The notes below the pieces were generated by a model that saw nothing but the letters and a program-made list of their open reading frames with translations, ran no database searches and had not been told where the DNA came from. Source: Geosiphon pyriformis uo1 (taxonomy: Eukaryota > Fungi > Glomeromycota). Taken from it: a stretch of DNA of 64,000 nucleotides. Positions 11,209-50,700 of the stretch are shown piece by piece. The stretch covers positions 496,001 through 560,000 of the forward strand of contig JAAOMT010000657.1 in assembly GCA_016748015.1 (NCBI GenBank), read 5' to 3'. Position 1 is the stretch's first letter. Every line of letters begins with the position of its first letter. Both the position numbers and the translations under genes were made by a program.

Positions 11209-11235
11209 CGATTTAATTGATAGGAGAAACTGAGA

Positions 11236-11273
<38 letters not shown>

Positions 11274-16704: not shown

Positions 16705-16743
<39 letters not shown>

Positions 16744-16920
16744 TTTTAAAAGAATTATTATTTTAGTTTTTATTTAAACATTTTGGTATTATTATAAAAC
16801 TGTAAAAAAAAAACAAATAAATTTTCTTAATTTAAAATATTTCAATATTTATTTAATAATTTTTGCTTTTTAATAAATTATATAAGTTATTTTTTATTTG
16901 AATATTTCTTAATACTTAGA
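15960..16920. other. Extreme A/T-rich block (probable terminally mutated repeat DNA)
   Basis: Almost no C or G and no ORFs; preceded by a LINE RT-like scrap LIKYLSNRKVTGL at ~15845-15890. Confidence 0.7.
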
Positions 16921-22908: not shown

Positions 22909-23179
22909 TTCTAATTTTCTATTTCGCAAAAATGATATTATGAATAATAATAATCTCTTATAAAACTTTTCGAAGGCCAAATTTTGCGAACCAAAAAATA
23001 ATGAAAAAGTTAGACTTAAAGAAATAAGGGATAAAGAATCATTCCTGCTGTAATAACTAGGTCTCGCATTATTTAATTCCCAGAATCTCGTGTAATGTCA
23101 TGGGGGTTTTAGTAATGAATGTAATAGACCCGGGTCTATAATACTGATTGGATGATGTAATTATCATGTGGTTTAAAAA

Positions 23180-24269
23180 GAAAAATTCTGAATAACTTTG
23201 TTATATTAATACAATTCAATTGATATTATTTTATTACAAACATATATCCATTATAACTGATTTTAAATTTTTATTAACTATTGAGCTTTAAAAATATGTA
23301 TAATTGTTATTAATTAATAAAAATCAAAACAGAAAATTGTTTTTATTTAATTCTTTTAATTTTTATAATTAATAAACTTATTTTTATGATAGTTGTTTTT
23401 ATTTTTTTATTTATTTTTTTTGTTATTTTTGTTATTTATATTCACAATTCTGTAATTTTTATCAATTTCAACAAATTTGTTGTTATAATTTAATTCTGTT
23501 TTACTATTATTATTATTATTTTTATTGGTATTAAATATATAATTTTTATTTATATATTAAACCTTATTTTTTATTTTGTTATAATTAAATATTAAATTAT
23601 TTTTTAAGATATTTTGTAAATTAAAAATACTATAACATTTAAAAAATCTGCAAATAAGTCCAAAATTAATATTATTTCATGTATTTTTAATTTATTTAAT
23701 AATAATATTATAAGTAAAATATTAAATTTGTTTAATAAATATTGATTTTTTGATTTTTTTGGTTATTATTATTATTATTATTTTATTTGTTTTTATAAAA
23801 TGTAATTTAATTATTATTTATTATAATAGAGCTGCTATATATTTTAAAATAAATATAATTTACATATTTTTTATATGTAATTAATTATTTAAGTTAATTA
23901 AAACTATATTATACTTTTATAAAATTTATAAAATTTTTAACAATATTTAACCAATTTATTAAATTTAATAATTTAAATATGTAAATAATAGTGTAATTAA
24001 AAGTATTAGATTAAATTTTATAAGTTAAAAATTTGCTAATTTATATTTATATTTAATAAAGATTTTTTATAAAAATTGTTAATAATAATTAAAAAATAGT
24101 ATAATCAAAAATATTTAAGCAAAAAATATATTAAATATAAAGAAAAAAAATCTTAAATTATGTTTTTATTTATATTTTAGATATAATTAAAAAAATTAAA
24201 ATTTTTTTAATAAACTATATATTTGAATAAATTATTTTATTCAAGTTTTAATTATTAATTTATTGGTAT
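23180..24269. other. Extreme A/T-rich block
   Basis: Near-absence of C and G; abuts a LINE relic. Confidence 0.7.
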
Positions 24270-25350
24270 TTTTATTTATTTATTTAACAAATAAGACCTA
24301 AATGCTACTTACTACAATATATCAAATTAAGTAATTTAAACTAAGTGCAAATCATGTTTTTTCTATACACAACTAGCTATTTGGGCCAATTAAAACAACA
24401 CTATAAATCTATCTTAATAGTGACTGTACTATTTGTATCAGAAAAAAAATAACAGAATCTACAAAAACCAAAGCTTATATCATGTGTTCCTATAATTCTA
24501 AGCAATCTCACCATATTATCAGAAAATAGAGATAAAGAATTATAAACCTCTGGAAACACAAACTCATTACTAGTAATCATATCCCTTTTTCTTCATAAAC
24601 ACTTTATACTTAGCTCTTATTAACCATATCTTAATTTGATGACTTATATCCAAATCTTGCACCAAATTAACAATTTTTTTACAAGCTAACTTAGCATAAT
24701 TAAAAACAAAAACAGCTTTTAAATACCAATTTTTAAACACAAAACTCTTGCATAAAACAGTATACATAGTATTATTAAAAAAATACAAAAAAAGAAATTA
24801 TAGAATATATAATAATAATAAGCTCAAGTCTAATCTAGAATTCCACCAAGCTGAATACAAATCAAGCAGTTCTTTGTAGGTAACAAAGTTCATTAAACAA
24901 ACAAAAAAGTAATTAAGAAGTTTCACTTTTCTACAGAACAGACACAATATATTAGGGTATTTTTTATTATACAAATGCTTTTTAATAGCAACAAACAACT
25001 GGTAATACAAAGCTTTTATGAAATATGAATACAGACCCATGGTAAATTCACTTGTAAACCCAAATATCATATGCAAGTTAGAATGTCAAATCAAAGATGT
25101 TTAAGACCAATTTATATCTTTAATTATATCTTTACCAATAATATTAAAACCAAACCCAATTTTTCATTAAGTATGTTAAACTGTCCTAAAAACATTATGA
25201 ATAAAATAGCAAATATTTTCAGATACCAGTATTCCATTAATCTTAATGAACTTTTCCCTAATAAAAACAAAAAATCTTAAATTGAAATGTGAAGTCAAGT
25301 CAGCCAACATATTAGTCTAGTCATTATCTAAGATATTCAAATAGCTTTTA
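24270..25350 (-). mobile_element. Heavily mutated 3' fragment of a LINE (ORF2 C-terminus, 3' UTR, (TAAA)n tail)
   Basis: YFIKALYYQLFVAIKKHLYNKKYPNILCLFC matches the ORF2 zinc-binding end of the 26.5-33.4 kb LINE; the 3' UTR aligns with 26490-26610 and 48015-48140. Confidence 0.88.
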
Positions 25351-25636
25351 ATTTAGTATTTTAAAAATTACATATTATTAAAAATAATAATAATATATAT
25401 ATAACTATTGTTAAAAGTTTTGTTTTTAAGAATTAAAATAATAAAATATTATAATTATTTTTAAATATAAAAAAAAATTTTAAAATTTTAGATTTAAATA
25501 ATTTTTTAATTATTTATAATTTAAAAAAAAATTAATTAAATAAATTTGTTATAAGCTTTTTTATTGTTTTTAAATATAAAATTAAAATTAAATTGGTTTT
25601 AAATTAGCATATATAGTTTTTTATTATGTATTATTT

Positions 25637-25870
25637 ACTAAATTAAACAAAATTTTAACTAAATATTAAGTATTTTTTAATATTATTATATTATATGTCT
25701 TAATAAATATTATATTAATATATATTAATAAGTATATACTAAATTAATAACCAAATTAAACAAAATTTTAACTAAATATTAAGTATTTTTTAATATTATT
25801 ATATTATATATCTTAATAAATATTATATTAATATATATTAATAAGTATATACTAAATTAATAGCCAAATT
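25637..25870. repeat. 113-bp direct tandem duplication inside an A/T block
   Basis: aattaaacaaaattttaactaaatattaag at 25641 and 25754. Confidence 0.9.
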
Positions 25871-26608
25871 AACCAAAATATTAACAGTTTTATTTTTAAT
25901 TACTTTTAAATATTTTTTGATTTTTTTTTAATAATATTATAATTAATTATATATAAAAAATACATAAATTAGATTTAATTTAGAATTTTAAATAATTGTA
26001 TTATATTAAATAATAATTGAATTTTACTTGTAAAAAAAATATTTGTAATATGTTTTTTTTAATCTAATATTTATTAAAATTTAATAATTTTAAAACTGCT
26101 TAATTGTCTAAAAAAATTTTAAAATTATTAAAAAAATGTATTTTAAAGCCAAAACAATAATATAAAACTTAGTTATAATAAATAATAAAAGATTAATAAT
26201 ATTGATTTTTAAACTTAATCTAAATTTAAAAAAAAGTCACAGCTTTATAAATTATATTTAAAAACCCAAATACTTATTTATATAAATTAAAATTACTAAT
26301 AAACAAAAATTTTATAAACTAAAAACTGTTTAAAAAAACAAAAAAATACTTTATATATTAGTTTTTTTAATATACTTAGCAAAAATTTATTATTAGTTTT
26401 ATTATTAATATTTTTATTTAAAAATTATAATATTAAAGTAAATTAAATCAAAATTAGTTTTTTAAAATCTAAATTTTTTTTTTTTAATTAATTTAACAAG
26501 TAAGGTCCAAATGCGACCTAGCACTATACATCATACAAATAATCTAAACTAGGTGCAAATTATGTGCTTTCTACACGTGACCAGCCACTCGGGCCAGTCA
26601 GGACTACA

Positions 26609-29600
26609 CTATATACCTATATGCACAAAAACCAAATCTCCAATACCTGAAAAAAATGGACAAAACTTATGAAACCTGAAACCAACTCCAAAAGCCTCAG
26701 CCATCCCCAGCAATCTAACCACACCAGCCGAAAGCACCATAGACAAACCAAAAACTGAAGCAGAAGTGGAGCCATCATGTGGAATCAAACTGTGCTTTTC
26801 AATAAACACCTGGTGTCTAGCATGAACCAACCAAATATTATTCCGAAATGCAAGACAAAACTCACACACAAAGCCCATAATCCTTTTAGTACCCTTCTTA
26901 GAATCTTTAAAAACCAAGACAGACTCATGAAACCAATCATCAAAAACAAAGCCCTTACACAGAGCAACACCAACTCCAACTTCAGAAACACAAGAAGCCA
27001 AAGTCTATAAGACACATGAAGAAGAGCAAGATAGACCAGAAAGAGCCTCCCAAGCTGAAACATGAGCGCCCAACAAATGAGCATGGTCAACGGCATCTTG
27101 AGGACACAAAAAGATATGATCCGAGGTCTCAACATCACCACAGAACAGACAGACCACACTGGGGTATCTCCTATCATATAAACGCTTGTGCACAGCAACA
27201 GAAAACCAATGATGGAGAGCCTTTATAAAGTAAGTATGACAGCCTGCCGTGCACATGCTGGTAAAACCAAATGCCAAGTGAGAATCAGTGTACCACACCA
27301 TAAAAGACTTAGACCAATTGATATCAGCACGCAAACTATCATCCACAACACGAGAACTCACTCCAACCTCCCAACGAGCTCGATGAACTGACTGGAAAAC
27401 ATCACGAACAAAATGTCTAGAATTACCAGAAACCGCCATATCACCAGCACATAGGAAACGTTCACTGACTAAATGAGATAGGCGCCAAGCAGAGAAAACA
27501 GCATCTTTGGCAAGCGCATCAGCATGCTTATTGTCCGAGACATCTAAATGACCTTTCACCTTAATCCAATTCACATCCAAATTTTTTTAATGAATGATGG
27601 TAGCAATGTAACAACGCTCAATCCAACAGTGGTTCCTGAAATCCAGACAAACCAGTAAAAACTTCGACCTACATGCATCCAAAGCAGCTTGGCTATCCAA
27701 GAACAAGTCAATCAAATGAGAAAAAAGAACACACTCAAGGACCAAAGCTATGGCTTGCAGCTCCATTAGAGTAGAAAAAACCAAACCAGACACCCCAACA
27801 CCCAAACCCAAGTTAATGTCCTCAAAAAAAATGGCAGCACCTGCTCTTACATCAACAGTGCCCAGACCAGAAAGAGATCCATCCATATACACAGAAAGAC
27901 AGGGAGCATCAACAGTCGGCAAGGTGTCATGAACCACACCAAAATTATAAGAAAGACAAATATTAAACACAGCATGACCATTCACCAAAAAAAAACTTGA
28001 GAAGAGAGGCACAACACCACCAAGAAAGCGAATGGAAAGATCAAACCAGAAAGGGACTGGGCTGCGAGGGTCTAGCCTCTTCCAATGCTTGAAGGTCCCC
28101 CAACTGAAAACATTACCATTACGGTCACGAAGCTGTTCCACGAAAGCAATTCCATAATGCCTGAGCAAAGAGATACACTTGAAAAAACAGGATTCACAAG
28201 AACCAAAGACATAGGAGTACTGCACCGATGACAAAAAGTACAAGCCAGAGGGCCTCTTAAAGACAAATCACACCCAGAAAAGATGCAGACCACACCTGCC
28301 AAAAAATTATTTGAGGGACTGATACCAACACGAGCCAGAAACAGCAAGGGATGACGAAAACACCAGCTGAGAACCTGGAGGTCATGAGACCTATGTGAAA
28401 ACAAGTAACTCAAGACACCAGTAGAATTTGCAAAAGCAATAACAGAGGCCAATTTATTCTTAGTCTGGATCTGTTCGAAAGTTTTTAAATTGTACAAAGA
28501 GGGGTAATGAAGTGCATTGCTGGGGAAATCACGTGGCAATCCAGACTTGGACTTTAAAATCTTGCATACCAAAGCATCCCATTTACTACAAACACCAATA
28601 GAAACAAAACTGAACTGAGTTCTGTAGCTGATGATAGGGAAAAGAACTGCAGACACCAAATATGTACACTGTTTGTCCGAAATTGCCTTTCTTAAAACAA
28701 GATTCACAAAAAACCGTACATTAGCCTGAGCTTTAGCCAAGCTAAGCTTCGAAAAACTCTCAGAAGACAAAAAAACACCCAAATAGCGATGAGATTCCCC
28801 TTTTTTGGCAATGGAAATAGGCGCGCCACTGATAATTAAATGAGAGTCCATTATCCGACAGTTGATAGGGATGGCCACTGTCTTGTCATTATTCACAGAA
28901 ATGTCATTGAACCTGAAAAATTCACTAGCAACATCAAGAATGTGTTGTGTAACAGCCTGGCTGCTACCAACCCAAACAGTATCATCGACGAAAGCACCAG
29001 CAGTAAAAAATGAAGTCAATCTAGCTCAAGGATCTACTCGGCCTGTTTTGGAAATAAAATGAGAATTCAATCTATAGTCACACATACTCTCCTGTCTCTT
29101 GACTTTGCACAAAAGTGAATCATAAAAAATATGCCAGAGAAGAGACGAAAAAACTTCTCCCTGATCCAGCCCATCATGGACACAATACCCATCAGTCAAG
29201 CCAAAGTCAGTTATTACCCTATTAATGCGACTATTGTAAATACTGCCAAAAAATCTAATAAACCTGCCACACATTTTGATCCTGACCAGACTTCTCCTGA
29301 GATGTTCTCAACCAACTGAGTCATAAGCCTTACGCATGTCCTGTAAAACCAGCCAAAGTTCACGGTTCTTCTTCAAGGCATCCTCAACCACAGAACCGAT
29401 AGCAAAAATGGGAGATTGCATTATCATGCCTTTCAAAACCAAAAAATTGTTCCCACAAAGAACATCAAAAGTGCTGCAAGCTGAAGAGATTCTATCTGAA
29501 AGGATTTTGGAGAGAATCTTGTGAGCTGTTTCAATTAAAGCTATAGGACAGATGTTTGTGAGAACTCTTTTCCATTCATATGGTTTAGGAATCATTGAAA

Positions 29601-31296
29601 CCCAAGCTTCCCTCCAAGGTCCAGGAACTGACTTACCAACCAAACAGAAATTCAAGAGTACCAAAAGCATATCCAAAACAGATTTGTCACAATGTTTCTA
29701 TAATTCGTTAGAGATACCAGAAAGACCAGCTGCTTTTTCATCAGGAAGATCCTTAACAACAGTTGACAACTCATCAAAACTGATTGAACACATGACATCA
29801 AAGAAAGCACTATCGAACACGTAATCCAGAGGCCGATATTGGCAAGCCCAATTCTCAGATAAGTCAGACATCACCTCACGTTTTCTGGTCCATCCCTCCA
29901 TAATTTTGTCCACCTTAGACTTAACCAAATCAGGCTCCAAAATCAATTCATCTTCTACAACCAGATGATCTAGGACCACCTTGTGAAAAAGACACTCCAA
30001 AACACTTCTAATGGTGTGACTCTTGTTTAGCTCAAAACTCTCCATTCTCTTACCAATAGCCTGCTTGATCAAGGATTCCTCAGCGCACTTGGATTTCAAT
30101 AATTTGAAAGAGCAGTACAATTTCCTTGCTTTGGCCAGCACTGAACGAATAAGATTAAAATTAGAATCTGAAAGAAACAGAGACTTAACCACCGACGCAC
30201 CAGAGGAGTTGAGTCTGTGCCATACCTCCAACAAAGAAGCAAAACTGTTACTAGAAGCCAAATGCGAAGCCTTAACCAACTTAGAAACCAGCAGTTCCAG
30301 CTTGTAAAACCTAGAAGAAGTCTTGGTAAACACACCATCAAAACCTTTGAACCACTTTTTCTTAAATGTACTATCTGCTGAAAGAACCATAATCTTGCAA
30401 ACAATGTCCCACATAATGTCCACATCTGAAAATCTCACTGCCACACCAAAAACATCCAAGAACATAGAAACATTAGCAGCTAAAGCAATCTTGAACTCCA
30501 ACCACTTAGCTTCATTGGCACTTTTGATGTCAAACTTCCAACAATTTCTATTTGCTTGCATGCAAAGAGAATTCAAATACGTATCCAAGAGTCCACCCAA
30601 ACCCAAATCTACTGAAACAGCTTGATGGTCTGTGTCAAAATGCCCACCAACATTCAAAACTTCACAACGCACTATTGCATTGACAAGACTTGACAAGACA
30701 AACATGTAATCAATTGTTTTTTTAACACCTCTAGAATTTTCCTAAGTGGGCATTTTCGCAGCTGGGCTGCTGGCTAAAGAATTGACCAGACCCAAATCAA
30801 AGCATCTTTTGAAACTTGCACCTTTATAAGAACCGTCTTTATTAAAATCACCTCCAAGAACGATGAAAAAAGATTCATTAACAGCCCTTGCAATAAAAAA
30901 GTTAATCTCATCAGTCTGAGAAAGCTGCGCCACTGAAGAAGCACCAGTATAGAGCCCCAGAATTGACACTGAAAGCTTATTCTTGAAAAGTAATCGAACA
31001 GACAGAAGCCAGCCAGGCACTTCAGAAACCTTGCATATATGCCTTGCCAAAGAAGAGTCCATGACAACCACCACACAAGCATCCAGATATCCAGAATCCA
31101 AACCAGAGGTAAACACCCAAACACCATCAAACTTGTTGATGATCCAGGGACAAACCTTATCCTTCAACTTTGTTTCAGTAAAAATAGAAACCAAATTGCT
31201 CTTGTCTTTGTGCCAACGAACTATATCTTCCTGTTTTGCAGGAACGTTCATGTCCCAAACATTACACATAGCAACTTTCCAAATCAAACTGGTCAT
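26609..31296 (-). pseudogene. LINE ORF2 (endonuclease, reverse transcriptase, RNase H), disrupted
   Basis: Consecutive ORF-track fragments from 30742-31335 to 26609-27001 form one polyprotein broken by stops and frameshifts. Confidence 0.92.
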
Positions 31297-33249
31297 TGAG
31301 AAGACGAGAGAACCAAAGAACCCAAACCAGAACACAACATATTCAATCTTGCCAAAACTGAGCTGACTGATGCATCCAAAGCCATCAACTTTGACTTCAA
31401 ACCACCAATCTTGGCAGTCAGAACCTTTGAACTACTGGAACCAAAATCAGGATTAGCATTATCAACAGTTGGGCAAAGAAAAGAGGATGTTGCCAACAGA
31501 ACATCCAGTGCCATATCCAAATCCATGCATGAGGCCTGAGAAGCAGACACAACAGGAGAAGGGGTGAGAGAAGAAGACACCAAAGATACCACTTTAACAC
31601 AGCTCAGTTTTTTTGCAATGGCAGAAACTTGGTCTGTCAAAAGCTCCAAAAAGTGTTCCAAAGACGCCACCCAATTACACAAACCAGAGATATCAGAAGG
31701 GGAGAATTCTACTAAGGTGGATTTCACACCAAAATTTGCACCAACACCAGAAAGACCCGAAGGAACCACACAAGAGGGAGAGCCACTAGCAACTTGGGCC
31801 TATGTCTTACCACCAAAGAAAACTGGGTAAGCGATAGGAGCCTGCTTTCTCTTATATACGTTAGCCAGACGAACCCAATTCTGAGAAGTTATCACTCACT
31901 TACTGCGAGTACCAGAATTCCCATCCATAGAACAAACATCAGAAACATGACTGAATTGTTTACACACTACACAACAGACCAAAGAGAGGCCAGCCCAATG
32001 CAAATCTACACCCTTGAAGACCGGAACCAAACCAACAGCAGCCAGCTTGGATGTCTCGCTTTCAAAACAAATTACAGCACACTGGTCACAAACATAAGAA
32101 GTTGGATTGCGGCCAATAAAACAAGTTTTCCTGCCATAAGCTTCCACCAATTCAGACAAATCATGGGTGGTGGTGCCAACTGGAATAGTGTAAAGCAACA
32201 CCTGATGCCGATTCTTAGATACCCATGTTTGTTTATCAATACTTGCCTTTGCCATGCGAACAGAATTTTTTCCCATGAGCACAGACCATCTAGCTGCGAC
32301 CAAATCAGCTATCTCAGATGATTCATATTCTACTAGGGCCTTTTGCCAAAGACCAATAAGCTGCACTTTGATTGAAGTGATCTTGCCAAACCTGGAGAAC
32401 ACTGCCTCAATTGCCAATTTGGGAAGATCCACTGGGATTTCCTTAATGATTACTTCCCGATCTGAATGGCTGTTTATTTTTCTTAGATCATTATTTACCA
32501 AAATATTTTTACTGATTGCCATTTCTCTTGTCTTAATCAAATTTTTCTCAGATGTAAATGATGATCTTATTATACCTGGATATTTTGAGAGAGTTGAAGC
32601 TCCCCCAAATCCATCAATTTGATAAAAGATTTTTTTTACAACCATTAATTTGTCAACATTTGTCTTTCCAGGCACTGCCAAAATCTCAATATCCAAGGCG
32701 AATAATTTAACTGGTTCAAAATCTCTTTTTTCCACAACACATAACTCAACTGCTGGCAAGCACTTGGAACCAGAGAATTTTGGTGACGAAAGTGCCAAGA
32801 CATCCTCATCATTACTCATTTTGTCAAAAGCAGGAGGTTTCGGTGGTTGGCTCAGCATGTAAGTCACAGTCCTTGTCATCTTTGGAGTGGCATTGTTTGC
32901 CATATCATCAGTGTTCGAGGCATTCAAATTCACATAACTCGTTTCCTCTGCAACCATGTTCTTTAAGTTTTTCATATCCAAGATCTCGCTGACACTATTA
33001 CCATTGCTTTCCACATCACTGCTCCAAGACTTTTTGTGTTCCACTCCATTAGCACCCAAAATGCTTATAGAGAGGACCAGCCAATGAATCCACCATCCTC
33101 CCAGCAGCTTCGAGTTTTCTTGGCTTCTTGTATGACACACTGCGAGAGTAGACACTCTCAACATGCTTCTTGTTTCTAACACCAGACCAGGTCCCCAACC
33201 CAGTCGAACTAGACCCAGAACCACCAGCAGAAAAGCTTGCCAGTTCCAT
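31293..33249 (-). pseudogene. LINE ORF1 (RRM-like + zinc knuckle + coiled coil), disrupted
   Basis: VIIKEIPVDLPKLAIEAVFSRFGKITSIKVQ (RRM-like), CVVCKQFSHVSDVC knuckle and LEHFLELLTDQV coil; frameshift near the 5' end and internal stops. Confidence 0.85.
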
Positions 33250-34029
33250 AGCAACAAACAAAGGGGTATCAAAAGAAATAACAAAAAAAAACTAAAAGGG
33301 AAAAGGGAAAAGGGAAACATATTTCTCTGGCTATTCAATGCTCTCATTGTAAGACAGTATGCAAAAACAGAAAAAACTTCTTTCAAAATTTGACTCTTTC
33401 AGGAATTTGGAATGAAGAAGAGAAAGAAGTTAATCTTTAATATTTTAGCAAACTCCTAAATTTTTTTATTAATAAAAAATAATTTAAGTAAAAAATTTTA
33501 TATTTTTATTAATTATTATACTAAAACATTTTAAATATTTAATTACAGAAAAATATAGTATTATTATAAATAATTTAAAATATAATTAATAAAATTTAAA
33601 ATTGTTTTTTTATTCTTTTAATAAATTAATAATTTTTATTATATTTTTTATTAAGCTAATATATTGTTAAATTATTTTTTTATGATAGATAAATTATTAA
33701 TTATATTTACTTTTTTAATTGTTTTTAGATTAATTAAATACTTAATAAATAAAAAAAAATAAAAAATTTAATATTTGTTATTATTAAGTAAAATTTGAAT
33801 TCTTAATTAACATAAAATTATTTTAATAATTTTAATATATTATATATTATATAGCCAAAATATTAAATATTATTATTAATATATAAATTAATTTATATAA
33901 TACATAAATATAATAAATAATATAATATTCTAAACAAAATTTTTTTCTTTTTTATATTTAAAATCCACTAAAAAGTATATTTTTTGTAAAAAAATTTTTA
34001 ATCATTCAATATAATAAATTCAACTTTTT

Positions 34030-35189
34030 TTTGTTTAATTATGAAACTATTGTTGGTTTCAGTATAATTATTATAAAGAAATTTGTTAAGAACTCTGGTT
34101 TTGGTAATAACAACAAATAAATTCTTTCTAGAAAAAAAAAAGTGGTATTTTGAAAAACAGTATTAATAGTAAGGTAGTTTTTACTAAAGTTTTAACTAAT
34201 TATTTTTAAAGCTTTAAAACTGGTAATACTGCTAAATCTAATAGTGTTAATATGGAAAAAAAATGTCTAATAGAAAAGAGCAATATTAATTATAGTAAAA
34301 AGAACTGTTCTAATAGAAAAAATTTTAATTAAACACTAAAAAATCCATAAATAAAAATCAAAATAACATTAAGTATACTTCTAAAAAAAATCAATTTTTT
34401 AAGTGATAATAATAATAATAATATCTTGTTAGATGCTTTATCAACTTTTCTCCTTCCTCTAAAAAATCTGGTTTTTGTTTCTGTTAAGAAGTTTTTTGTT
34501 TTAAATATTGGATTAAATAATATTATTAAGAAGTTTTCTTAGAAAAAACTTTTAGTAATAAAAAAATTGTTTTTAAAAATCAATAGGTTTGGAAAAGCTT
34601 CTTTCTTCTCAAAATTTGCTGAAATTATTAAAGCTATGTTTATTTTTGAATTTAGCTTAATACAAATAACTAGTATAGCAAAAACTAAAAATATTATTGT
34701 AAACACTAATCTTAAAAAATCATTTGTGCATTTAAATTAGACTGTAATAATAATAAAAATCCTAATTGAAATATTGGCTAAGGCTGTATATGCTGTACTA
34801 TCCGAATTTAATGAGATTAAGTTAATTAAGATACAATTAATAGAGCTATAACAAAAAGCTGTAATTGTATTTGGTTAATTAAATTATGCTAATCTAGTTA
34901 CAACAAAGTGGTTTGTTTTAATCAAAGAGAATACAATATATATAACTAAAACTAATATAGACAAAAAATTATGAGATATAAGGAATTAATATAGAATACT
35001 GTTTTATACATTACTAGTGAGAACAAATGTTCACAATATTTGGGATTTTATTGGTTCTGTAAATAAAAAAACATGTGTTATAGATTGTTATCCAGTCATG
35101 TACATTCAGACTAGATGTGCAGTTATCTGTTTTAATTCTTTTGAATCATTAAAAACTGTTATAAAAACCATACTAATGCTAAAAGATGC
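34030..35189 (+). mobile_element. Heavily mutated LINE ORF1 relic, cut off by the solo LTR
   Basis: SKFAEIIKAMF..IIVNTNLKK..RILFYTLLVRTNVHNIWDFIGSVNKKTCVIDCYPVMYIQTRCAVICF is homologous to ORF1 at 32000-32600. Confidence 0.85.
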
Positions 35190-38514: not shown

Positions 38515-39150
38515 TGTTATGGGTTGGAGTAACAAGCTAACAGCAAGAGAGAACAGGATTGTAGGGTAATGGAAATAATCAAAGAAAATTCAACTTCAAA
38601 GAGCAAATTGAATAAGTATGGATTCAATGTGTGAGATCAGTCTCATGAAATATCTCAGTCACTATTCTTTTCAAAAGGTAACTGGAGAATCTGAAGGTAG
38701 AGAGATAGTCCGTACTGTCAACAAATGATCACACTTGGTATAATTCTATGCCTCATATTAGCACTCTTAAAATTCAATATCAAGTATCAGATGTGCTCTT
38801 CAGTCATGTTTTATTCAATAATTTTCAAATGTTATACTTATACATTTTAGGAAAAGGGTAAAAATTAACCAACAAGTAATCTTTTATTCCAAGATGTTCA
38901 GATACTTGAAGGTAAGAAAAGGGAAATTAGCAATAAGAAAATGATTGAAATGAAAGTTGTTATTTTATTTATTCTTGATTATTTTGAACATGCTTTTCTA
39001 TAGCTAAGAGATTTATTGCTTATATAGCTGTCAAAAGTGGTCAATAATCAGATTAATAATCACTATCTAAAAATAGTATAGCTAATTTATATGACATCAA
39101 TGGCTAATACATGTGATAATTAATAAGAAGTATAAGTTTCAACTGTAATA
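38515..39150 (-). repeat. Gypsy 3' LTR (636 bp)
   Basis: Direct repeat of 45547-46292; polypurine tract GGAGAGGATAA (minus strand) adjoins at 39151-39161. Confidence 0.95.
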
Positions 39151-39776
39151 TTATCCTCTCCAAAAAGATTGAGCTCTGGCAAAATCAAGCTATTTATGGG
39201 GTAATCTATTTGAAGAGTTTTATCTAACTCAAAGCTAACTAGTTTGTTGAAGTTTTTTGTAGATAAAGTATATAACACTTGAGGCAAAATGAGTTTTGTA
39301 TCCAAAAGACCAAATCTTTGTATTAGAGTTTTAGCTCTTTTAGCAATAGTTAAAACTTTTGAGACATCTAACTGTATAATGTCCAAAATTTCTGTCTGTA
39401 TCTCTGAAGTTGTTTTCTTCATAAGTTTCATATTCTTTATAATTTCACCAAGACAACTATAGAGTTTTAATTGTTTTCTATATGACAAGTTTTTGTCTAT
39501 GGATAAGATTTCTTGGAGTGTTTTTTCAATTGTGTTGGAAGGTGGAAGTATAGCTGCTGTTATACTTTCTAACAGATATTTATCCATTTTACTACCAATT
39601 TTTTCTCTTCTAGTAGTAGTTTTCTTTGGTCTAATAACAATATGTGTTCCACTGTTATTAGTTATGGTGGTTTGTTTTCCAATAGTCAGAGTAGCATTTG
39701 GATAGTTTTTGATCCAATACTCATAAAGAGTATAAAAGACATTTTGAATGTTTTGATCCAGAAAATAATTGTTCAT
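39120..39776 (-). CDS. Extra intact ORF (218 aa from ATG) between integrase and 3' LTR; unknown function
   Basis: Uninterrupted frame (open from 39872) crossing the PPT and stopping ~30 nt inside the LTR; no signal peptide or TM segment. Confidence 0.6.
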   Translation of the reverse strand: MNNYFLDQNIQNVFYTLYEYWIKNYPNATLTIGKQTTITNNSGTHIVIRPKKTTTRREKIGSKMDKYLLESITAAILPPSNTIEKTLQEILSIDKNLSYRKQLKLYSCLGEIIKNMKLMKKTTSEIQTEILDIIQLDVSKVLTIAKRAKTLIQRFGLLDTKLILPQVLYTLSTKNFNKLVSFELDKTLQIDYPINSLILPELNLFGEDNITVETYTSY

Positions 39777-39849
39777 GTCAATTGAAGATATCTCTGTTTT
39801 GGGAATGGTACATTTATTTATACTTGATTTTTGCTGATCATTTGAGTTG

Positions 39850-42800
39850 GTATTACCACAACAGACAGCCAATCAAGTCGTTTATGATATTTTTTGAGTC
39901 ATATACTGTAAACAGAATGATTATTAAAAATTGTTCTGGATTAATCTTGAAGAATATAAGAACCATTGTTCAAAACTTTGTTAACTATAAAGGATTCTTT
40001 CCACTGGCTAGAAAATTTATTACCATAGACATTGTCTCTGTTTGAATGATATTCTAATACCAAGTTACCAACACTTAAAGAAAGTGTTTTATAGGTTTTC
40101 TTTTTCTTAAGCTTTTCTTAAAACTGTTTTATTTTTTCAAAAGCAATTATTTGTGCTTCTAACAAGAAGTCAAGAATAATACCAAGTCTTTTTTGCAAAA
40201 TGTCTTTGTAATTTCTTATTGTGATCTTTTCAAAGGGTATTGTTTCAATGTCAGTTTCTATTGGTAGTGTTGTCATGCGTCCATAGAACAGATAAAAAGG
40301 TTCATAACTTGTTATGTCATGATTCACAATTCTATAAGCAAACAAAGCTGAAAGCAGTACTTTGTCTCATAAGTTTGTTTCTTTACTGGTTTTGGCTAGG
40401 TTTTCACATAGTGTTCTAATAAAACGTTCTACTAGGCCATTTTTTTGGGAGTGATAAGGGGAAAAAAGTTTATAACATATTCACATTTTTCTACAAAGTT
40501 TTTCAACCAGTATACTGAGAAAAGCTCTTCCTCTATTAGATAAAAGTTCTTTGGGGCAGCCATGACAGCAGATGATATTTTCATAAATAAAATTGGTTAT
40601 TGAGACTGCTGTTTGGTCTGGAGTGGCTTTTGCTTCTACCCACTTTGTAAGATAGTCAGTAGCTATAATAATGTATTTATTGCCATTAAAAGTTATTGTT
40701 AAAGGTCCAACAACATTTATACCAATTCTGTCAAATGGTTGATCAACAGAGATTGAATGAATATCTTCTTTGCAATTGGGTTTGCTTTTTCTTTGGCAGA
40801 TGTTACAGGTTTTAATGTATTCAGCAATGTTTTTTCTCAAGATAGACTAATAATAGTGAGCTAAAGTTTTCTGAATTGTCTTTGTTTTTCCAAAGTATTC
40901 AGTTAATGGGTCAGTATGCATGTTATATATTACAATTTCTTTTTCTTCAAATCTAATAACTCTTTGGGAGTAGTCAGGATCTTTTTTGTTTCTTTTGTAT
41001 AATTGGTTCTGATAGATCAAATAGAAATTTAATTGTTTATACAAATGTTCTCTTTGCTGTCAAGTGTATTTTGATAGGTATTGTCTTTTACCCAAAAATT
41101 TTATTAAGGCAAAGTAGTTGTTCAAGTCTATTATCGTGTTTGTTTGTGAAAAAGTTACTAATAATTAAGTTGGTTTGGTTTGAGAGATTGTACTATTACT
41201 GGATGGTAAGTTTAGAAAGAGTGTTAGCATTTTGATGATTTGCTCTTTTGTAGTATTGAATATCATAGTCAAATTCATCCAAGTGAAATATTCAATGAGT
41301 TATTTATTTGTGTTCCAGCTTTTTTTTATTGCACAGCCAAACCAAGGCTTGATGATTTATTACTACTAAGAATTTTGCACCAAGAAAATATTGATCCCAG
41401 TAGCTAGTAGCCCAAACTACTGCTAAATATTCTTGTTCAATAACTGAATAGTTTTTTTCTGCTGGTGTGAAAGATCTACTGGCATATACTATGGCATGTT
41501 TTCTGACATTTTCATCTTTCTGTGAAAGAACAGCACCAAATCCATAGCCAGATATATTAGTGTGGAGAATAAAAGATTGATCCAGATCTGGTTGCTTGAG
41601 AATTGGTTTAGTAACAAGTTTTTTTTTCAGAATTTCAAAAGCTTTTTGTTAATAAGTGCCTCAGTAATAATTCACATTTTTCTTGAGTAGTTAATTAAGA
41701 GAAAAGACAATTTTAAAGAAATTCTTGATAAATTTGCAATAGTAAGAAATCAAACCAAGGAAAAAGCATAGTTCAAGAACATTCATTGGTTGTTTAATGT
41801 TTTAAACTTTTTCAACTTTAGCTGGGTCAGAGAAGATTCCATCTTTTGTAATAAGATGACCAAGGAATTGGGTGAATTGGCATCCAAAGAAAAATTTGAT
41901 TGGGTTGATCTTAAGGCCAGCATTTCTGAGCAGATCAAAAACCTTCTGTAAATGTTCAAGGTGTTCATCTCAGGTTTTTGAATATACTATTATGTCATCC
42001 AAGTAAACCAGAACAAAGTTTTTTTTTACTGATTCAAACACTTTATCTATTAGATGTTGAAAGGTGGAAGGAGTATTAGTAAGACCAAAAAACATGACTG
42101 TGAATTCATAGGTGCCATACTTGGTGATGAAAGCAGTTTTCTTTCTGCTTTCTGAATCCATCTCTACTTGCCAGAATTCAGCAGTTAAGTTAATGGTTAA
42201 GAAGAAAGCAGCACTATTGAATTTATCTAGCATTGTATTAATTTTGGGGAGTGGGTACATGTCTCTTATAATAATGACATTTAGATGACAGTAGTCAACA
42301 CAAAAGTGTAGGGTTCTATCTTTCTTGAATACCACTACAACTGGAAAAGCCCATTCACTCTTGGTTTTTTGTATGAATCCAAAATCTTTTATCCAGTTTA
42401 TCTCTTTCTTGATAAACTTATTATTGCATCAATTGGATTGATAAGGCTTCAAATAGATGAGGCAAGTTTCTTTTGTGGTAATGGTGTGTTGTATTACATG
42501 AGTTCATGCAGGAGTATCATCTTCTTTTGAAATAACTGGGCTATTTTTAGCCAACAGATTTTCAATGTCCACTTTTTTTTCTTTAGGAGAAGGTTTTCTT
42601 TGTTCTACAACTAATGATTGGATTTCAGGTGGTTCATTCTCAAAGGACTTTTGTACTTCTTTAAGTTCTTCTTAAGGTATCAAGCTAATTGGTTCTCAAT
42701 TTTTGTAATAGATCAGACAGGATTTGCATTCATCACTTGGTAAATACAAAAGTTTATTACATCAGCACCATGCACAAGAGTCATACCACCAATAACTGTA

Positions 42801-45480
42801 TTTGGCTTTTTTGCCAGGCTTTCTGTCAAAGGTTTTTCTGAAGATATCATAGTAGAGCCAGCAGATTAGCTTGCCATTCACCATGATTCTTTCTTTGTCA
42901 GCTTTAACATTGTCTAGAGACTTGTCATTGCTAGTAAAAATGGTATAGGCAAGTTCAGCAGTTTCTTTTTGTTCTTCTTGATTTTCATCATCATTGCTCT
43001 CATTATCATTTAATTTATTTGATTGTTCTTCTTCTTGGTTCTGTCGGGTTACTGAAAAAGTTGTCCAATGACAGCACTTAACCACAATAGGTTTCTCACT
43101 ATATCTGATGGTTAGTTCACAGAGTTCATAATCAAGCAAGGCTTTTGCTTTCTTAAATTACTTATTACTAACAATAATAGTATACTCTTTTGCTTTAGAT
43201 ACTTCCATGTTAGTTTCAATGCTAATGCTATTGATTCAAACAGAAACAGCTTTAGTTATGTCCAGATTTTTCTTTTTGTCACCATGTATATTGGTCATTG
43301 GTCTTGTAGACAGTTCATCAATTTTTCTGCCAATTGCTTCTAAAAAGTGTTTGGCAATAACACTAACAAATGATCTACTGTCCAGGATCAAATCAATAAA
43401 GTAGCCAGCCACTTGGGCTTTGCAAATCAAAGAAGTGACATTGCTGTTGTCAGCAAGTCCAGCTTAATAAGAGTGTTTATTGGTTTTTGGTGTCTTTTTC
43501 TTTGATATTAATGATTTGCAAAGGTTTTTTCTGAATTGGGAATGGGTCATTAACTGGCCAAAGATAATGTAAGCAGGAGTTTTCATGAGATCTTTAACAA
43601 CAGAATATGGTCCAGATTTTTGTACAATTTTTGGAGGCTTCAACTTTGGAGAATTTTTAAAAACTTTAGCTTTTGGTAGCTCATTGTTATCAACAGTTAA
43701 TATGGAGACTTTTTTTAGATCTATAATGAAATCAATCTTGGCTTTCTTCTTCTTTCTTGTTGGTTTAGAAGTGTTGATTGCTAATTCATCCATGTTATAG
43801 TCATCATTAGTTAGGTTAAAAGCATAAAAAAGGTTTTCTTCTGGTTGGCTTGCACTTTTACCCTTTGGAGATGTGCCTACCAGTTTAAAGGCTGATAAAC
43901 AGTGGCTTCTATTAGGGGATCCTCTCCAAAGAAATTGATGTTAGCATGATTGAGTCTTTAATTGAGAACATTATTATTGTTGGGTCTGTTATTCTGAATG
44001 TTATTATTTCTAGGAGCTGGAGGTGACAATGGAGGATTGTTACAGTCTCTTAAGAAGTATCTAGTTAGTTCAAAGTGATAACACACAAATGAGCCACGAT
44101 TTTGCTGTCTTTAATATAGTGGTTGTTGGGGCTAATTGAAGCGGGGTTCAAATCTGGGTCTTTGGAGTTGTTGATTTTCTCTAACTGCTTGGGCCAAAGA
44201 TTCCAGTAGCCAGGCAAGATTAGCTGTGAGTCTATCTATTAACTGTTCATTTGGGTCTTAAGTTTGGACAGCAAAAGAGGCAGTAGCCATTTGTGGAGCT
44301 AGAACTATGGCAGAAACAGGAGCAAAAACTGGAAGTGTGGATCTCAAATGCATCCTTTGGTTATCTTCAATTTTTTGTGCCAGTTCAATAGCCATGTCTA
44401 TTGTTGAGTTATCTTTTAAAGCCAAAAGAGGCCAAAAAGCATACAATAAATTAGTTTTTAATCTTTTTGTAAAAGAATGGATCTTTTGCTCTTTTGTTCA
44501 GTTTCTCCCAAAGTTTACACATTTGATTATCTTTCTAATAGCTTTGGCATATTTAGTCACTACTTCTCCAAGGCCTTGGGTTCTTCTTTTTAATTCCATG
44601 TGCCATTTGGATATTAATATTGGGGTTCTAAACTTGGTCTCAAACCAGGTAGTAAAAAAGGTATTTTCTTCTCTAGTATTGGTTAGTATCCATCTGATTA
44701 TTCGGTGTTGAGCATTGGCATCTGTTTCTTGTAAGAACCAGGTAGCAAAAAAGCCTTGGAAATAGCCACCAATGATTTGGAACTTGTATTTTTCATTATA
44801 CTGGTTGGCTGTGGCAGCTCTCTCAAAATCATCCAACTATTCAATTAGATTTTGTGCATTACCTCTAAATAGTGGTAGTGGGGTATTGTTTCTTCTTTCT
44901 AAAGCAGTTTGTATATCTTAGAGAATGGCCAGAATGTTTGCTTGTATGGGATCATTAGCCATTGGTTTAGGGATAACTGTTTGTGTAGATGAGTTTGATT
45001 TGCTTAATAAAAGATCAAAAACAGAGACAGTTTAGTAGCTTTCTTCTTCTGTTTCAAAGGGAGTTTTAGTTGCTTGATGAACAGCAATCCAAATGTGAAT
45101 TTGATGATTCAGATATTCGAAATTAGGGGGCTGTTGCTTGATGAACAGCAATCCAAATGTGAATTTGATAATTCAGATATTCGAAATTAGGGGGCTGTTG
45201 TTTAAAGATTGTAGAATACAAGAGCTGATTGATACTGTTGTTTCTTTCTTCAAAGTTGTCTTCAAAATAAGCTTGGTCAAAGTGATAGATTGTATAAGCT
45301 GTGTAGGTTTCAGCTGAATGCTTGTTCAGGAACCAGTTCCAAAAGTCTTGAAATTGTCTGCTGGATTGTTCTTTAATGGAGAAGCAAATCAAGCAGGAGG
45401 ACAAAAAATTAAGTTCAATAAAGTTTAGATTGTTTTTGTTGTGTGCTTTAAAGTGTTCTTCTGATTGTTATAGCAGGTAT
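39850..45480 (-). pseudogene. Gypsy gag-pol, disrupted
   Basis: Fragments 44498-44836 (capsid), 43236-43430 (protease), 41970-42335 (RT) and 40481-41044 (integrase). Many premature stops; a 64-bp duplication at ~45069-45200 frameshifts the gag N-terminus. Confidence 0.92.
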
Positions 45481-45522
45481 AAATAATTATCTATACAATA
45501 GGAAACAAGATAAAATTTGACA

Positions 45523-45540
45523 ACCTTACAGGAAGCACCA
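45523..45540 (-). promoter_or_regulatory. Primer-binding site TGGTGCTTCCTGTAAGGT (tRNA-Ile-like)
   Basis: Starts with TGG 6 nt after the 5' LTR; the tRNA identity is tentative. Confidence 0.75.
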
Positions 45541-45546
45541 CTTTTA

Positions 45547-46292
45547 TGTTATGAGTTGGAGTAACAAGCTAACAGATAGCAAGGAAGAACAGGATTATAG
45601 GGTAATGGAAATAATCAAAGAGAATTTAACTTTAAAGAGCAAATTGAATAAGTATGGATTCAATGTGCGAGATTAGTTTCATAAAATATCTTAGTCACTA
45701 TTCTTTTCAAAAGGAAACTGGGGAATTTGAAGATAGAAGAATAGTCTGTACTGTCAACAAATGATCACACTTGGTATAATTCTATGCCTCACATCAGCAT
45801 TCTTAAAATTCAATATCAAGTATCAGATGTGCTCTTTAGTCATGTTTTATTCAATAATTTTCAAATACTATACTTATACATTTTAGGAAAAGGGTAAAAA
45901 TTAACCAACAAGTAATCTTTTATCCCAAGATGTTCAGATACTTAAAGGTAGGAAAAAGGAAATTAGCAATAGAGAATGATTGAAATGAAAGTTGTTATTT
46001 TATTTATTCTTGATTATTTTGAACATGCTTTCTACAGCTAAAAGATTTATTGCTTATATAGCTGTCAAAAGTGATCTATAATTAGGTCAACAACTAGGTC
46101 AATGATCAAGTCAATGGTTAGGGCAATGATTAAGTCATTGATCAGGTCAATGATCAGGTCAATAATTAGGTCAATGGTCAGGTTATTGATCAGATCAATG
46201 ATTACTATCTAAAAATAGTGTGGCTAATTTATATGACATCAGTGGTTAATACATGTAATAATTAATAAGAAGTATAAGTTTCAACTTTAACA
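45547..46292 (-). repeat. Gypsy 5' LTR (746 bp) with 11 x 12-bp GGTCAATGATCA array
   Basis: TGTTA...TAACA termini; direct repeat of 38515-39150; array at 46073-46204. Confidence 0.95.
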
Positions 46293-47850
46293 ATATTTTG
46301 AACAACTAAAAAACTTTTTTTAACATGTAAAGCACCAAAAAAAGAGAATTTAGAATCAAAACTAGAGTGAACATCATTAAAAAAGACAGTAAACAAAGCT
46401 ATCTAAACTCAAAATTTGCCATTGAATATAACAAGATAAAAAATAGGAATACTTTTTTTAAAATATAATCTTGCTAATTAAAGACAATTTTTTTTGAAAC
46501 AACTCTTTTATAAATTTTTTTAGAAGACAAAACAAATATGCTTGATGTATCATACTTCAAAACTGAATGTCCAAAATGTCTGTATTTTTTACAATAAACC
46601 AAATCTAACTTAGTCCAAAAGAGTTTTATATTACCAAAAATTGGCTTTGTGTGAAAAGCAGTCTCAAGTTTTTTACTTATTTTAAAACTAATCATAGCAT
46701 AATGAATTTTATTGTCAGTATTAAATGATTAGTTAATAATACAAGTTTTTTACCAGTTTTCTTTAATAAAGCACCAAAATCATAAACTATTGTTTTTATA
46801 GGCAAAATAAACAGAAATACTCTAAACTGATTTCTTAACTTCCAAGTTTTGTGATTTCCTATGGTCTTTGTCATATGTACTAATTTTTTCCAATTAAAAA
46901 TGACCACTTTGTTGTCAATTAATTTGCTTGAACTAATTTGGCAAATTTTACTACAGTCTTTTGTTATAGCCTAATTGGTTGTAATTAGATTAATACTATC
47001 TAATTATACTTGGCTATTGTAGCAATAATTATTTTTTTTGGTATATTTATAAGAATTTTCTTGATTATTACAGTCTAATCTGACTTGATTTTTTGTTTTT
47101 TGACATTATTGTTTATAACAATTCTTTTTTCTTTAGCCAATAATATAGTTTTTTCTATGCTTTTTTCTAAAATAAATATAGATTTAATGATTTCTTTAAA
47201 TTTTAAAGAAATAGTGGTCTTTTCAAAACTATTAATTGATAAAAATAACTTTTTGATTGTTTGTATTTTAGCCATTGCTGATTTGCTCTTCATAGCTAAT
47301 AAATTAATATCCAAAATAAAAATTTTTTTAATGGTTACTTCAATTGTAGTCTTTATTATCTTAGAATTAAACTATTTTTTATTCAAAAAAATGTTGAAAA
47401 GAGGCAAAAAAAAATTAACTTTTTTTTTCATATCAAATTTAAAAAAATCTAGAAGAAATCTATAATTTATACTACTAATTACTTTTTTGGCTTTAAAAAA
47501 GATCTATTATTAATGTCTTTTATAATAATACTGTTTTTATTACTATTAGACTTACTGTTTAAATTTGAGTAAACACTAATAGAACCAAACTTAAACAAAG
47601 ATATATTTTTTTTTATCATCAGAGTGTTTAATATTGTCAAAAACTACTCTTTTTTTTAAGCAAAAAAACCACCAGTAAAACCATAAAAAGCTTTTTTAAG
47701 CACTTTTTTCTTAAATATATTATTATTTGAAACAGTTTTCAAATTCATAACAAAAAAATTATTAAGTTGAGAAATATTAAATAAAAAAAATAAGAGAAAA
47801 CAAAAAACTTTTTTTTTGAAAATATGCTTTTTGAAGAATATAAAATATAG
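46293..47850 (-). mobile_element. 5' part (UTR and ORF1) of the LINE relic interrupted by the Gypsy
   Basis: KTWKLRNQFRVFLFILPIKTIVYDFG, YCKKYRHFGHSVLKY and KKLFLSINSFEKTTISLKFKEIIKS are ORF1-homologous and continue at 38514 across the insertion. Confidence 0.87.
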
Positions 47851-48004
47851 AAGAAAAAAAAGTTTTTATTTTTTATAATTTAATTTATTAAAATTTTAAA
47901 AGCATTATGTTAATTATAAAATAGTTTCTAAAAACTTATTATTTTTATTATTGTTAATTATAATTTATTATTTTATGTTCTATATTTTTTATATTATTTA
48001 GTAT

Positions 48005-49170
48005 TTTTATTTATTTATTTAATAAGTAAGACTCAAATACTATCTAGTACAATAGATCAAACTAAGTAATCTAAACTAGGCACAAATTATGTTTTTTTTA
48101 CATATAACTAGTCACTTGGGCCAATCAAAACAATATTATAAATCTATCTTAATAGTAACTACACTATTTGTACCAGAAAAAAATAACAAAATTTATGAAA
48201 ACCAAAGCTTATATCATGTGTTTCCACAATTTTAAGCAACCTTATCACATTATCAGAAAACAGAAATAAGAAACCATAAATCTTCAAAGACACAGACCTA
48301 TCATTAGTAATCATACCTCTTTTTTCCATAAATGCTCTATGCTTAGCTTTTATTAATCATATCTCAATCTAATAACTCATATCCAAACTTCACACCAAAT
48401 TGACAACTTTTTTACAAACTGATCTAATACAACCAAAAACAGAAACAGCTTCTAAATATTAATTCTTAAACACAAAACTCTTGTACAAAGCAGTATACAT
48501 AGCATTATTGGAAGAATACAGGAAAAAAAATTGCAGAATACATGATAATGACAAGCCTAAGTCTAATCTGGAACTCCACCAAACTGAGTGCAAATTAAGC
48601 AGTTTTTTGCAGATGGTAAAGTTCATTGGACAAATAAATAAGTAATTAGGAAGTTTCACTTCTCTACAAAGCAGACACAATATGCTGAAGTATCTCTTAT
48701 TATACAAATACTTCTTAATGACAACAAACAACTGGTAATACAAAGCCTTTATAAAGTATAAGCACAGACTTATAATAAGCCTACTTATAAACTTGAATGC
48801 CATATACAAGTCAAAATGCCAAACTAAAAATATTTGAGACCAATCTACATTCTTAATTATATCTTTACCAATAATGTTAGAATCAGATCCAACCTCTTAT
48901 TAAGCACACAGAACTGCTTTAAAAACATCATGAGTAAAATAGTGAACATTCTTAAACACTAGTATCCTACTGGCTTTAATAAACTTTTCTTTAATAAGAA
49001 CAAAAAATTTTAAATTAGAATGTAAAGCCAAGTTAGCCAGCATGTTAACTTAGCCATTACTTAAGACATCCAAGTGGTTCTTAACTTTAATTTAGGAGAT
49101 ATTAAGTTTTTTATGCTTAATAAAATTAGCAATATTATGTCTTTCAAGTCAACAGTGATTATGAAGTATT
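48005..49170 (-). mobile_element. Mutated 3' LINE fragment, sister copy of 24270-25350
   Basis: Colinear with the 24.3-25.3 kb copy over ~1 kb; YFIKALYYQLFVVIKKYLYNKRYFSILCLLC. Confidence 0.9.
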
Positions 49171-50377
49171 TTTGTTAATTATTTTATATTATTTTATTGT
49201 TTTAAATTACATATTTTTTGTTTTTTATTCAAATAATACTAATTATTTTTAATTATAATTATTAATAAGATATTAATTTTTTATTTATTTTTTGTTAAAT
49301 TAAAATAATAATAAAATTAATAATAAATATAACATTATAAATAACTTAATAATAAAAAATACATACTATAAATATAAAATTAACTTATTAAAATTAAAAA
49401 GCTTATTAGAAAAATAATTAAATACCAAAATAAATTTGTTAAAAAAAACAAAAAAAAACAAATATTAATATTATAAATTTTAAGTTTTAGGTGTTTAATT
49501 TGTTAATTAGTTTTTATAAAAAATAATAATATTAAAAATTAATTTTATTTTAATTAAAAAAATTATAATTTTTTAAATTATTTTAAGATTAAATTAGTTA
49601 TTTTTTGGTTAAATTGTATTTAAAATTAGTAAATTAGTTTTTTAAATAAATAATTATATTTTGTTTTATTTTTAATTTTTAATTTTTAATTTTTATTTAA
49701 TATTTAAAATATTATTGTTATTTTTAGTTCTTAAAAAAATTTAGATATTATTATAATTAAAATTAATACTTTAAAAAAACCATATTTAATAAAAAACTTT
49801 TAATTATTATTATAATTTTAAATATTAAATTTTAAAATATTTAATATTGTTTTAACATAAATTTAAATAATTAATCATATGTTAAAACCATATAATTTAT
49901 GCTTATAGTTATAATATTTTATTGTAAATAAAATAAATAATAAATGAAATACATATTGTTAAAATATTTGAAAATTTATAATAATTATTATTATTATTAA
50001 GCTTAAAAAAAATCAAAAACAGTTATTTAATAACTTAAATACATAATAAAAAATAAGTTAATTAATTTAAAATACTAATTTTAAAAATTATAGTATTTAA
50101 AATGTTTTAAATTTTAAAAAATATAATTGTATAATTTTTTAATAATAATAAAGCAAATATAAATATAAATCTAATTAATTATATTGTTAATTTTATAGAT
50201 TAATTTGGTCATAAAAATTATTTTTAAAACAATAACTTTTATAAAAAATTTTAATAGTGTGTTTTTTAACAAAAATTGAAAACCAAATTAAAATTTTAAA
50301 ATAAATAGTAAAATATTACAAATTAATAATTTTTATTTTAACAATAATAATTTTACTATTTTATTTTTTTTGACTTA

Positions 50378-50408
<31 letters not shown>

Positions 50409-50700
50409 TAACAATAATTATTATTATTATTTAAAAAAACAAAAATTTTAAGAAAAATGTTTTTACAATGTTTTATTTAACTGTTTTTACTTTAAAAAAA
50501 AATTTGTTTTTTAAATATATTATATAAAATATAAAATTTCCACATTTTTATATTTTTGTTTATCTTTAATTTATTATTTAAATTTAAATTTAAAATTTAA
50601 AATTTATTTTTATTAAATATCATATTATCAATTTTTTTAGTTATAAATACTTATTAATCCAAAATCCAATTATAAAAAGTGTATTGAAACTAAATCTCAA
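49170..50700. other. Extreme A/T-rich block
   Basis: Continuous with the LINE relic; almost no C or G. Confidence 0.7.

Follow-up and report, generated by a model that had tools for sequence, protein, structure and literature searches.

The question raised by this locus is whether the repeats of an early-diverging fungal lineage are subject to C>T mutation resembling RIP (repeat-induced point mutation), and by which route such mutation would arise. The locus is an island of transposable elements (TEs) at 23.2-50.8 kb of the window, the whole stretch of 64,000 nucleotides analysed here (contig JAAOMT010000657.1, positions 496,001 to 560,000), from Geosiphon pyriformis (Glomeromycotina), a relative of the arbuscular mycorrhizal fungi (AMF). 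The island contains a lightly decayed long interspersed nuclear element (LINE B), a heavily decayed LINE colinear with it (LINE C), a 7.8-kb Gypsy element inside C, an inverted LINE piece (D), fragments of two LINE 3′ ends (A and E), and A/T blocks at three places. The original prediction, made from the sequence alone, placed this DNA in an early-diverging fungal lineage, in agreement with the LINE homologues: all 56 matches to the reverse transcriptase (RT) frame in the window are named Geosiphon pyriformis, as are all 10 of those checked among 150 further relatives. The C>T decay is real and genome-wide in the TEs, and is RIP-grade in quantity yet not canonical RIP by context.

Substitutions between sister copies are the first line of evidence. 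Across the first ~420 bp of both Gypsy long terminal repeats (LTRs; 3′ LTR at 38515-39150 and 5′ LTR at 45547-46292, both on the reverse strand), about 30 substitutions, all but one transitions, had been counted; the first 420 bp have 29 transitions and 1 transversion. When positions near gaps and ends are set aside, the whole LTR pair has 41 transitions and 2 transversions (41:3 and 42:4 under other trimmings). The sister LINE fragments A (24258-25350) and E (47993-49085), both on the reverse strand, also differ as predicted, with 229 transitions and 6 transversions in 1079 columns. The transition share is far above 0.75 in both comparisons (LTR pair p 5e-4; A/E p 1e-21). The contexts are broad, as had been claimed; CpC or CpT accounts for 122 of the 224 differences between A and E and for 20 of the 41 between the LTRs. 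The transitions are not confined to ancestral CpG and, since about half of them are at CpC or CpT, CpG decay cannot explain them.

The description of the differences as transition-only does not extend to comparisons between LINE subfamilies, where the transition to transversion ratio (Ts/Tv) of B against A, C, D, and E is 0.85-1.55. Direction is nevertheless evident in these comparisons: 40-51% of the C:G sites of B are T:A in A, C, D, and E, against 6-12% for the reverse. With B as the outgroup, 125 of the 226 A/E differences have a strong base in B, a share close to that at shared strong sites (88 of 165) and far from that at shared weak sites (146 of 654); the differences therefore behave as ancestral strong sites. 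LINE B has itself acquired five in-frame stops where other copies carry W or Q, together with a sixth that is ambiguous; four of the five are explained by a single C>T or G>A step, and the remaining TGA, at a Q column, would have had to pass through CGA.

The same spectrum is present in copies across the genome. When 195 Geosiphon LINE proteins were aligned to B, 1171 of 1631 columns were well covered with a clear majority, and B agrees at 991 codons. Per opportunity, C>T changes occur at 4813 of 38737 sites (12.4%), T>C at 1.6%, and each class of transversion at 0.4-0.8%, with the same spectrum in an alignment of 56 copies. The strands are equal (sense 0.122, antisense 0.126). By dinucleotide, the rates are 0.142 at CpA, 0.111 at CpT, 0.116 at C before C (1281 of 11042, summed from the trinucleotide rows), and 0.18 at CpG (18 sites); the CpA rates may take in decayed CpG of B, and predicted proteins favour the less damaged copies. 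There is a preference for a 5′ T, at TCA (0.22), TCG (0.22), and TCC (0.16), compared with ~0.10 elsewhere. The derived residues are mostly private, with a mean sharing of 0.17 over 924 pairs and 2.5% of pairs above 0.5. For the Gypsy element, 68,075 matching contigs from sequencing run X1, which is perhaps the window's own sample, have at least 1328 transition sites and at least 130 transversion sites, with 0.248 of C changed to T and 0.254 of G changed to A. The spectrum, direction, strand symmetry, and contexts are shown, as is presence in hundreds of copies of two TE classes. Neither A nor E has an excess of strand-coordinated runs (z -0.86 and -0.75), although many rounds of mutation would erase such runs. 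A second run, X2, has a few contigs that match 38521-38755 and 39397-39514 and represent a GC-richer form of the Gypsy LTR and 3′ region in which CpG is present; this may be a copy with fewer mutations.

CpG loss is confined to the repeats. No CpG remains in A, C, or E, none of 40 CpG positions of B is still CG in A and E, and the observed/expected ratio (o/e) of CpG is 0-0.06 in the decayed TEs compared with 0.80-0.96 outside. The stretches 23132-26513 and 45669-50814 are free of CpG. The Gypsy element was predicted to keep about a dozen CpGs and has 12 in 7.8 kb (o/e 0.06). The predicted abundance of CpG in genes such as IML1 holds for the genic flanks (o/e 0.80-0.89); the name IML1 is unconfirmed, with none of 11 open reading frame (ORF) pieces from positions 1.2-3.9 kb matching a corresponding Pfam family. 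Seven unique spacers have a GC of 0.277 and a CpG o/e of 0.96. In the midst of otherwise CpG-free DNA, a patch at 35197-35910, with a degenerate 10-bp array, keeps CpG.

A series of LINE decay had also been proposed, from mildly mutated copies to near-pure A/T. A gradient of GC is present, from LINE B (0.41) through Gypsy (0.32), E (0.28), and A (0.25) to C (0.23), while the final step to the A/T blocks is unsupported. These blocks (GC 0.08-0.10) were tried as LINE remnants and rejected; they align neither to B nor to one another, even as purine/pyrimidine strings, and descent from LINEs is therefore not shown. Of the related LINEs described at 34-38 and 46-49 kb, the parts at 34-38 and 46-47 kb belong largely to a single LINE that the Gypsy element interrupts.

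For comparison with relatives, 109 proteins of this LINE clade from other sources, 17 of them named Rhizophagus, were used; their pairs mix species and live elements and are therefore no pure neutral control. A metagenome scan, which served just to reach this family, returned four distant LINE loci at ~28-37% identity. At 75-85% identity, the ratio of transition-only to transversion-only residue changes is 14.7 in Geosiphon (83 pairs) against 0.87 in the control (12 pairs). Best-partner pairs reach at least 85% residue identity in 1 of 154 cases in Geosiphon compared with 31 of 80 in the control clade. One soil metagenome contig (L001, 1421-6940) has an open 1840-aa frame of the clade, with Rhizophagus relatives and a CpG o/e of 0.78.

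The explanation favoured here, at a probability of roughly 0.55, is that the all-context, both-strand C:G>T:A change and near-total CpG loss of Geosiphon TE copies come from dense CG and non-CG methylation of silenced repeats, followed by mutation to T. Equal strands and divergence between the two LTRs indicate that the change arose in chromosomal DNA after insertion, and complete CpG loss with C>T in all contexts fits CG and non-CG methylation followed by mutation. Under this model, methylation of the DNMT1/DNMT5 type would erase CpG first and a DIM-2-type enzyme would methylate the remaining cytosines with a mild 5′-T bias (TCA and TCG at about twice the rest). Deamination, spontaneous or enzyme-assisted and poorly repaired, would then fix the changes gradually in the chromosome, with no need for pairing or meiosis, and copies would be inactivated through nonsense and missense changes and drift to ~13% GC or less.

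Published data, cited throughout from partial texts of the papers, are consistent with such a route. The AMF are stated to have DNMT1, DNMT2, DNMT5, DIM-2, and RID (PMC8298701), a statement made for AMF and not a test of Geosiphon. In R. irregularis, 32.5-49.5% of cytosines are methylated by liquid chromatography-mass spectrometry (PMC8298701). At ~27% GC (the figure for R. clarus), CpG would hold at most ~14% of cytosines; the 5-methylcytosine (5mC) of R. irregularis exceeds this share, and most of it would therefore be non-CG. DIM-2 methylates mainly non-CG sites (PMC13297926), and Phycomyces TEs carry 5mC at CG and CHH (PMC11258239).

A number of observations weigh against this reading. The CpG rate on surviving sites is just ~1.5 times that of other contexts, a figure biased towards resistant sites. 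Some spacers (GC 0.22-0.24) are as rich in A/T as LINE C (0.23). The pattern is also not unique to Geosiphon, since six close, non-independent R. clarus pairs have 77 transition-only and 11 transversion-only residue changes, with 32 of 104 differences surely non-CpG transitions; a milder form of the C>T process is probably present elsewhere in Glomeromycotina. In the nearest mechanistic parallel, Dim2-dependent mutation in Zymoseptoria tritici, CpA accounts for more than 98% of changes and CpG escapes (PMC8016269), unlike in Geosiphon, where all contexts change, CpG is erased, and the enzyme is putative.

Beyond the TEs, a dead copy of a lipase gene weighs the same way. Run X1 contains this copy, located elsewhere in the genome, of the gene at 13912-14139 of the window, with a nonsense codon and a 1-nt deletion that shifts the frame. 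Among the 24 changes listed of 29, there are 15 C:G>T:A at 82 strong sites, 4 reverse changes at 146 weak sites, and 5 transversions, and the C:G>T:A changes span all four contexts (direction, Fisher p 8e-5). Synonymous transitions divide 2:2 between the dead and live copies; some of the bias may therefore be general. The Ts:Tv of 19:5 is below that of A/E (229:6; p 0.0014), though it is not separable from that of the LTR pair (p 0.09). The dead copy may be a duplicate caught by the TE process, or it may be a view of a general spectrum. The contig that bears it also matches 21771-21823 of the window.

A general spectrum would follow from a genome-wide bias, such as weak repair of deaminated C through loss of a uracil or G:T glycosylase, that is seen only where selection is absent, with ordinary CG methylation adding the CpG loss of TEs. 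Among the alternatives this unlikely explanation survives best. The near-flat context, the direction in the lipase pseudogene, the A/T-richness of unique non-coding DNA, and the bias of the R. clarus LINEs would all be expected from it. The lower Ts:Tv of the pseudogene, within the limit given above, would not. Short genic duplicates have 35 transitions and 19 transversions (p 6e-11 against A/E), although these are coding and therefore confounded by selection. In addition, the TE spectrum has an equilibrium GC of ~13%, whereas the GC is about twice as high in spacers (27.7%), in six putative introns (25.8%), and at fourfold sites (22-38%). Composition and the short genic duplicates speak against an effect on the whole genome; the dead lipase copy leaves the point partly open.

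RIP proper with a relaxed context is doubtful. It would require that duplicated DNA be detected by pairing, in a cell that is premeiotic or the product of fusion, and that both copies be mutated in bursts by a RID-type enzyme. The Ts/Tv of 20-38 is within the range known for RIP, near-identical copies are almost absent in comparison with the control clade, the duplicated lipase gene is also affected, and RID is among the enzymes listed for AMF (PMC8298701). Set against this, there is no CpA specificity in the rates given above, no strand-coordinated runs are seen (with the caveat of many rounds), CpG loss is total, and one lipase copy seems intact. The composite RIP index is -0.53 for Gypsy, -0.85 for LINE B, and -0.07 to 0.07 for A, C, and E, compared with -0.49 for genes, and CpA-based RIP indices do not flag Gypsy. 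RIP-like signatures are found in ascomycetes only, according to the available part of PMC12543289. It is conceivable, at the same low likelihood, that a homology-triggered, context-free RIP with DIM-2/RID-type enzymes acts across Glomeromycotina, extreme in Geosiphon, milder in Rhizophagus, and missed by CpA-based indices. If true, RIP-type defence would predate Dikarya and mark a cryptic sexual or fusion stage in reputedly asexual fungi. The original prediction had left two options, RIP-like mutation or dense methylation with deamination; its broad-context, directional C:G>T:A change in repeats stands, and of the two, methylation followed by C>T is preferred over RIP proper because there is no CpA specificity, strand-coordinated runs are not seen, and CpG loss is complete.

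Editing of retroelement cDNA or of single-stranded DNA by an AID/APOBEC-type deaminase is very unlikely. Enzymes of this type prefer TpC, which the 5′-T preference resembles. Editing of cDNA would, however, yield G>A on one strand, and the LINE and Gypsy strands are equal here (0.122/0.126 and 0.248/0.254); divergence between the two LTRs postdates insertion, and the affected sequences include a pseudogene that is not a TE. Strand equality and LTR-to-LTR divergence largely rule out the cDNA form. An error of assembly or consensus is scarcely credible, as is decay of CpG by itself, since apart from CpG loss being the most complete component neither has support of weight, read-derived contigs reproduce the spectrum, unique DNA was matched over 2455 bp by run X1 (which has no cover at 18.5-20 kb) without a difference, and changes at CpC and CpT are not derivable from CpG.

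With methylation followed by C>T as the preferred reading, the Geosiphon pattern can be placed among known systems. CG-depleting TE hypermutation was reportedly described by Clutterbuck in 2017 for Basidiomycetes and some lower fungi. Geosiphon shares with it CpG-free TE islands beside CpG-normal genes, but differs in that half of its changes are at CpC or CpT and Ts/Tv rises to 20-38. RIP as known from Neurospora crassa and other Pezizomycotina (PMC12543289, PMC13297926) is likewise similar in part: repeats change almost exclusively by C:G>T:A, TE ORFs bear nonsense codons, near-identical copies are lacking, and A/T-rich relics are present. Unlike N. crassa RIP, the Geosiphon change lacks CpA specificity, shows no strand runs in A or E, gives a negative composite index on Gypsy, and includes total CpG loss. 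In Z. tritici, Dim2-dependent C>T mutation in repeats is mitotic (PMC8016269); it is confined to repeats, more than 95% C>T, tied to non-CG methylation, and independent of meiosis (PMC8016269). The C>T change in Geosiphon is similarly concentrated in TE regions and on both strands.

Within the same subphylum, the TEs of R. irregularis are CG-methylated (PMC8647823 and its preprint), and its 5mC is TE-targeted and very high in total (PMC8647823, PMC8298701); in the available parts of these accounts no mutational consequence is reported and non-CG methylation is unmapped. The accessible text of PMC8647823 cites a lack of RIP signatures for Gigaspora margarita and Mucoromycotina, and that of PMC12210899 reports no RIP for rusts. 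A RIP-like process has been claimed outside Dikarya for Zoophthora radicans and other Entomophthorales (PMC11105155). That claim uses dinucleotide indices with stated caveats (PMC11105155), unlike the aligned, polarised substitutions of Geosiphon, which such indices largely miss. For Geosiphon itself, an LTR content of 41.2% is given and RIP is nowhere named in the portion seen of PMC11952901. CpG methylation alone is called in the corresponding portion of PMC13443276, and the name 'Geosiphon' is absent from the 12 files searched among the 19 supplementary files of PMC12543289. A literature search, with the Geosiphon genome paper outside its reach, returned no report of an all-context C>T spectrum in Geosiphon or Glomeromycotina.

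The island is built as follows. At its left edge is an A/T block (23180-24250, unstranded; GC 0.10, no CpG, last CpG leftward at 23131), followed by fragment A, a 5′-truncated 3′ end with an A-rich tail, and by a second unstranded block (25351-26457; GC 0.08, no CpG). A third is at the right edge (49086-50700, unstranded; GC 0.09, no CpG, first CpG rightward at 50815), and the origin of all three is untraced. LINE B, the least decayed (26458-33400, reverse strand; CpG o/e 0.32), has ORF1, an endonuclease-like region, RT, and RNase H, for the last two of which the Pfam matches fall on its homologues P0002 and P0041. Fragment D (34489-35184, forward strand) matches ORF1 of B. The left part of LINE C (35961-38514, reverse strand) is colinear with B at 29.1-31.7 kb and has T:A at 49% of the C:G sites of B; its right part (46297-47330, reverse strand) continues past the Gypsy insertion, corresponding to 31.7-32.7 kb of B. 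A and E (here taken as 24258-25350 and 47993-49160) are truncated within ~80 bp of one point and have similar A-rich tails, and may have arisen by local duplication or as a short family of non-autonomous elements.

The Gypsy insertion is flanked by a target duplication, ATAT, at 38511-38514 beside the 3′ LTR and at 46293-46296 beside the 5′ LTR. LINE B also has ATAT at the homologous place; a CpG-centred target therefore gets no direct support, though both may be decayed. In the 3′ LTR the inner terminal CA has become TA and a purine tract adjoins. The internal region (39151-45546, reverse strand) is a broken gag-pol with 10 CpG and with matches to RVT_1 (E 1e-17) and rve (E 6e-4, below the family cut-off). 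The 5′ LTR is the longer in its 12-bp tandem array, which is expanded at 46066-46209 relative to the 3′ LTR.

Ordinary genes are found on both sides of the island (Sel1, GATA, tRNA endonuclease, CMS1, and lipases); a search for CMS1 homologues returned only the window's own protein. A cluster of long secreted-looking ORFs at 5133-14760 has 81-, 33-, and 30-bp coding repeats, and two of these ORFs run, in opposite orientation, into exons of lipase class 3. Between genes at 15950-16900 there is a fourth A/T block (GC 0.10), adjoining CpG-poor DNA at 15.3-15.9 kb, which is not a high-copy repeat at 85% likeness. At 19700-20860, a multi-exon gene resembles a RAD51 paralogue, with weak Rad51/KaiC matches on one 30-aa exon.

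The decay described here would be a variant of methylation-linked repeat mutagenesis in an early-diverging lineage, new in comparison with the known systems. The published claims of RIP in ascomycetes only, and the negative results for Gigaspora and Mucoromycotina, used CpA-centred or k-mer screens, and the standard index misses an all-context spectrum. The existence of mutagenic repeat defence outside Dikarya, and its possible dependence on sex, thereby become testable questions. For Geosiphon, hundreds of the proteins annotated as 'hypothetical' are pieces of mutated LINEs (195 counted here), young intact copies are rare, and TE ages estimated from divergence are inflated several-fold.

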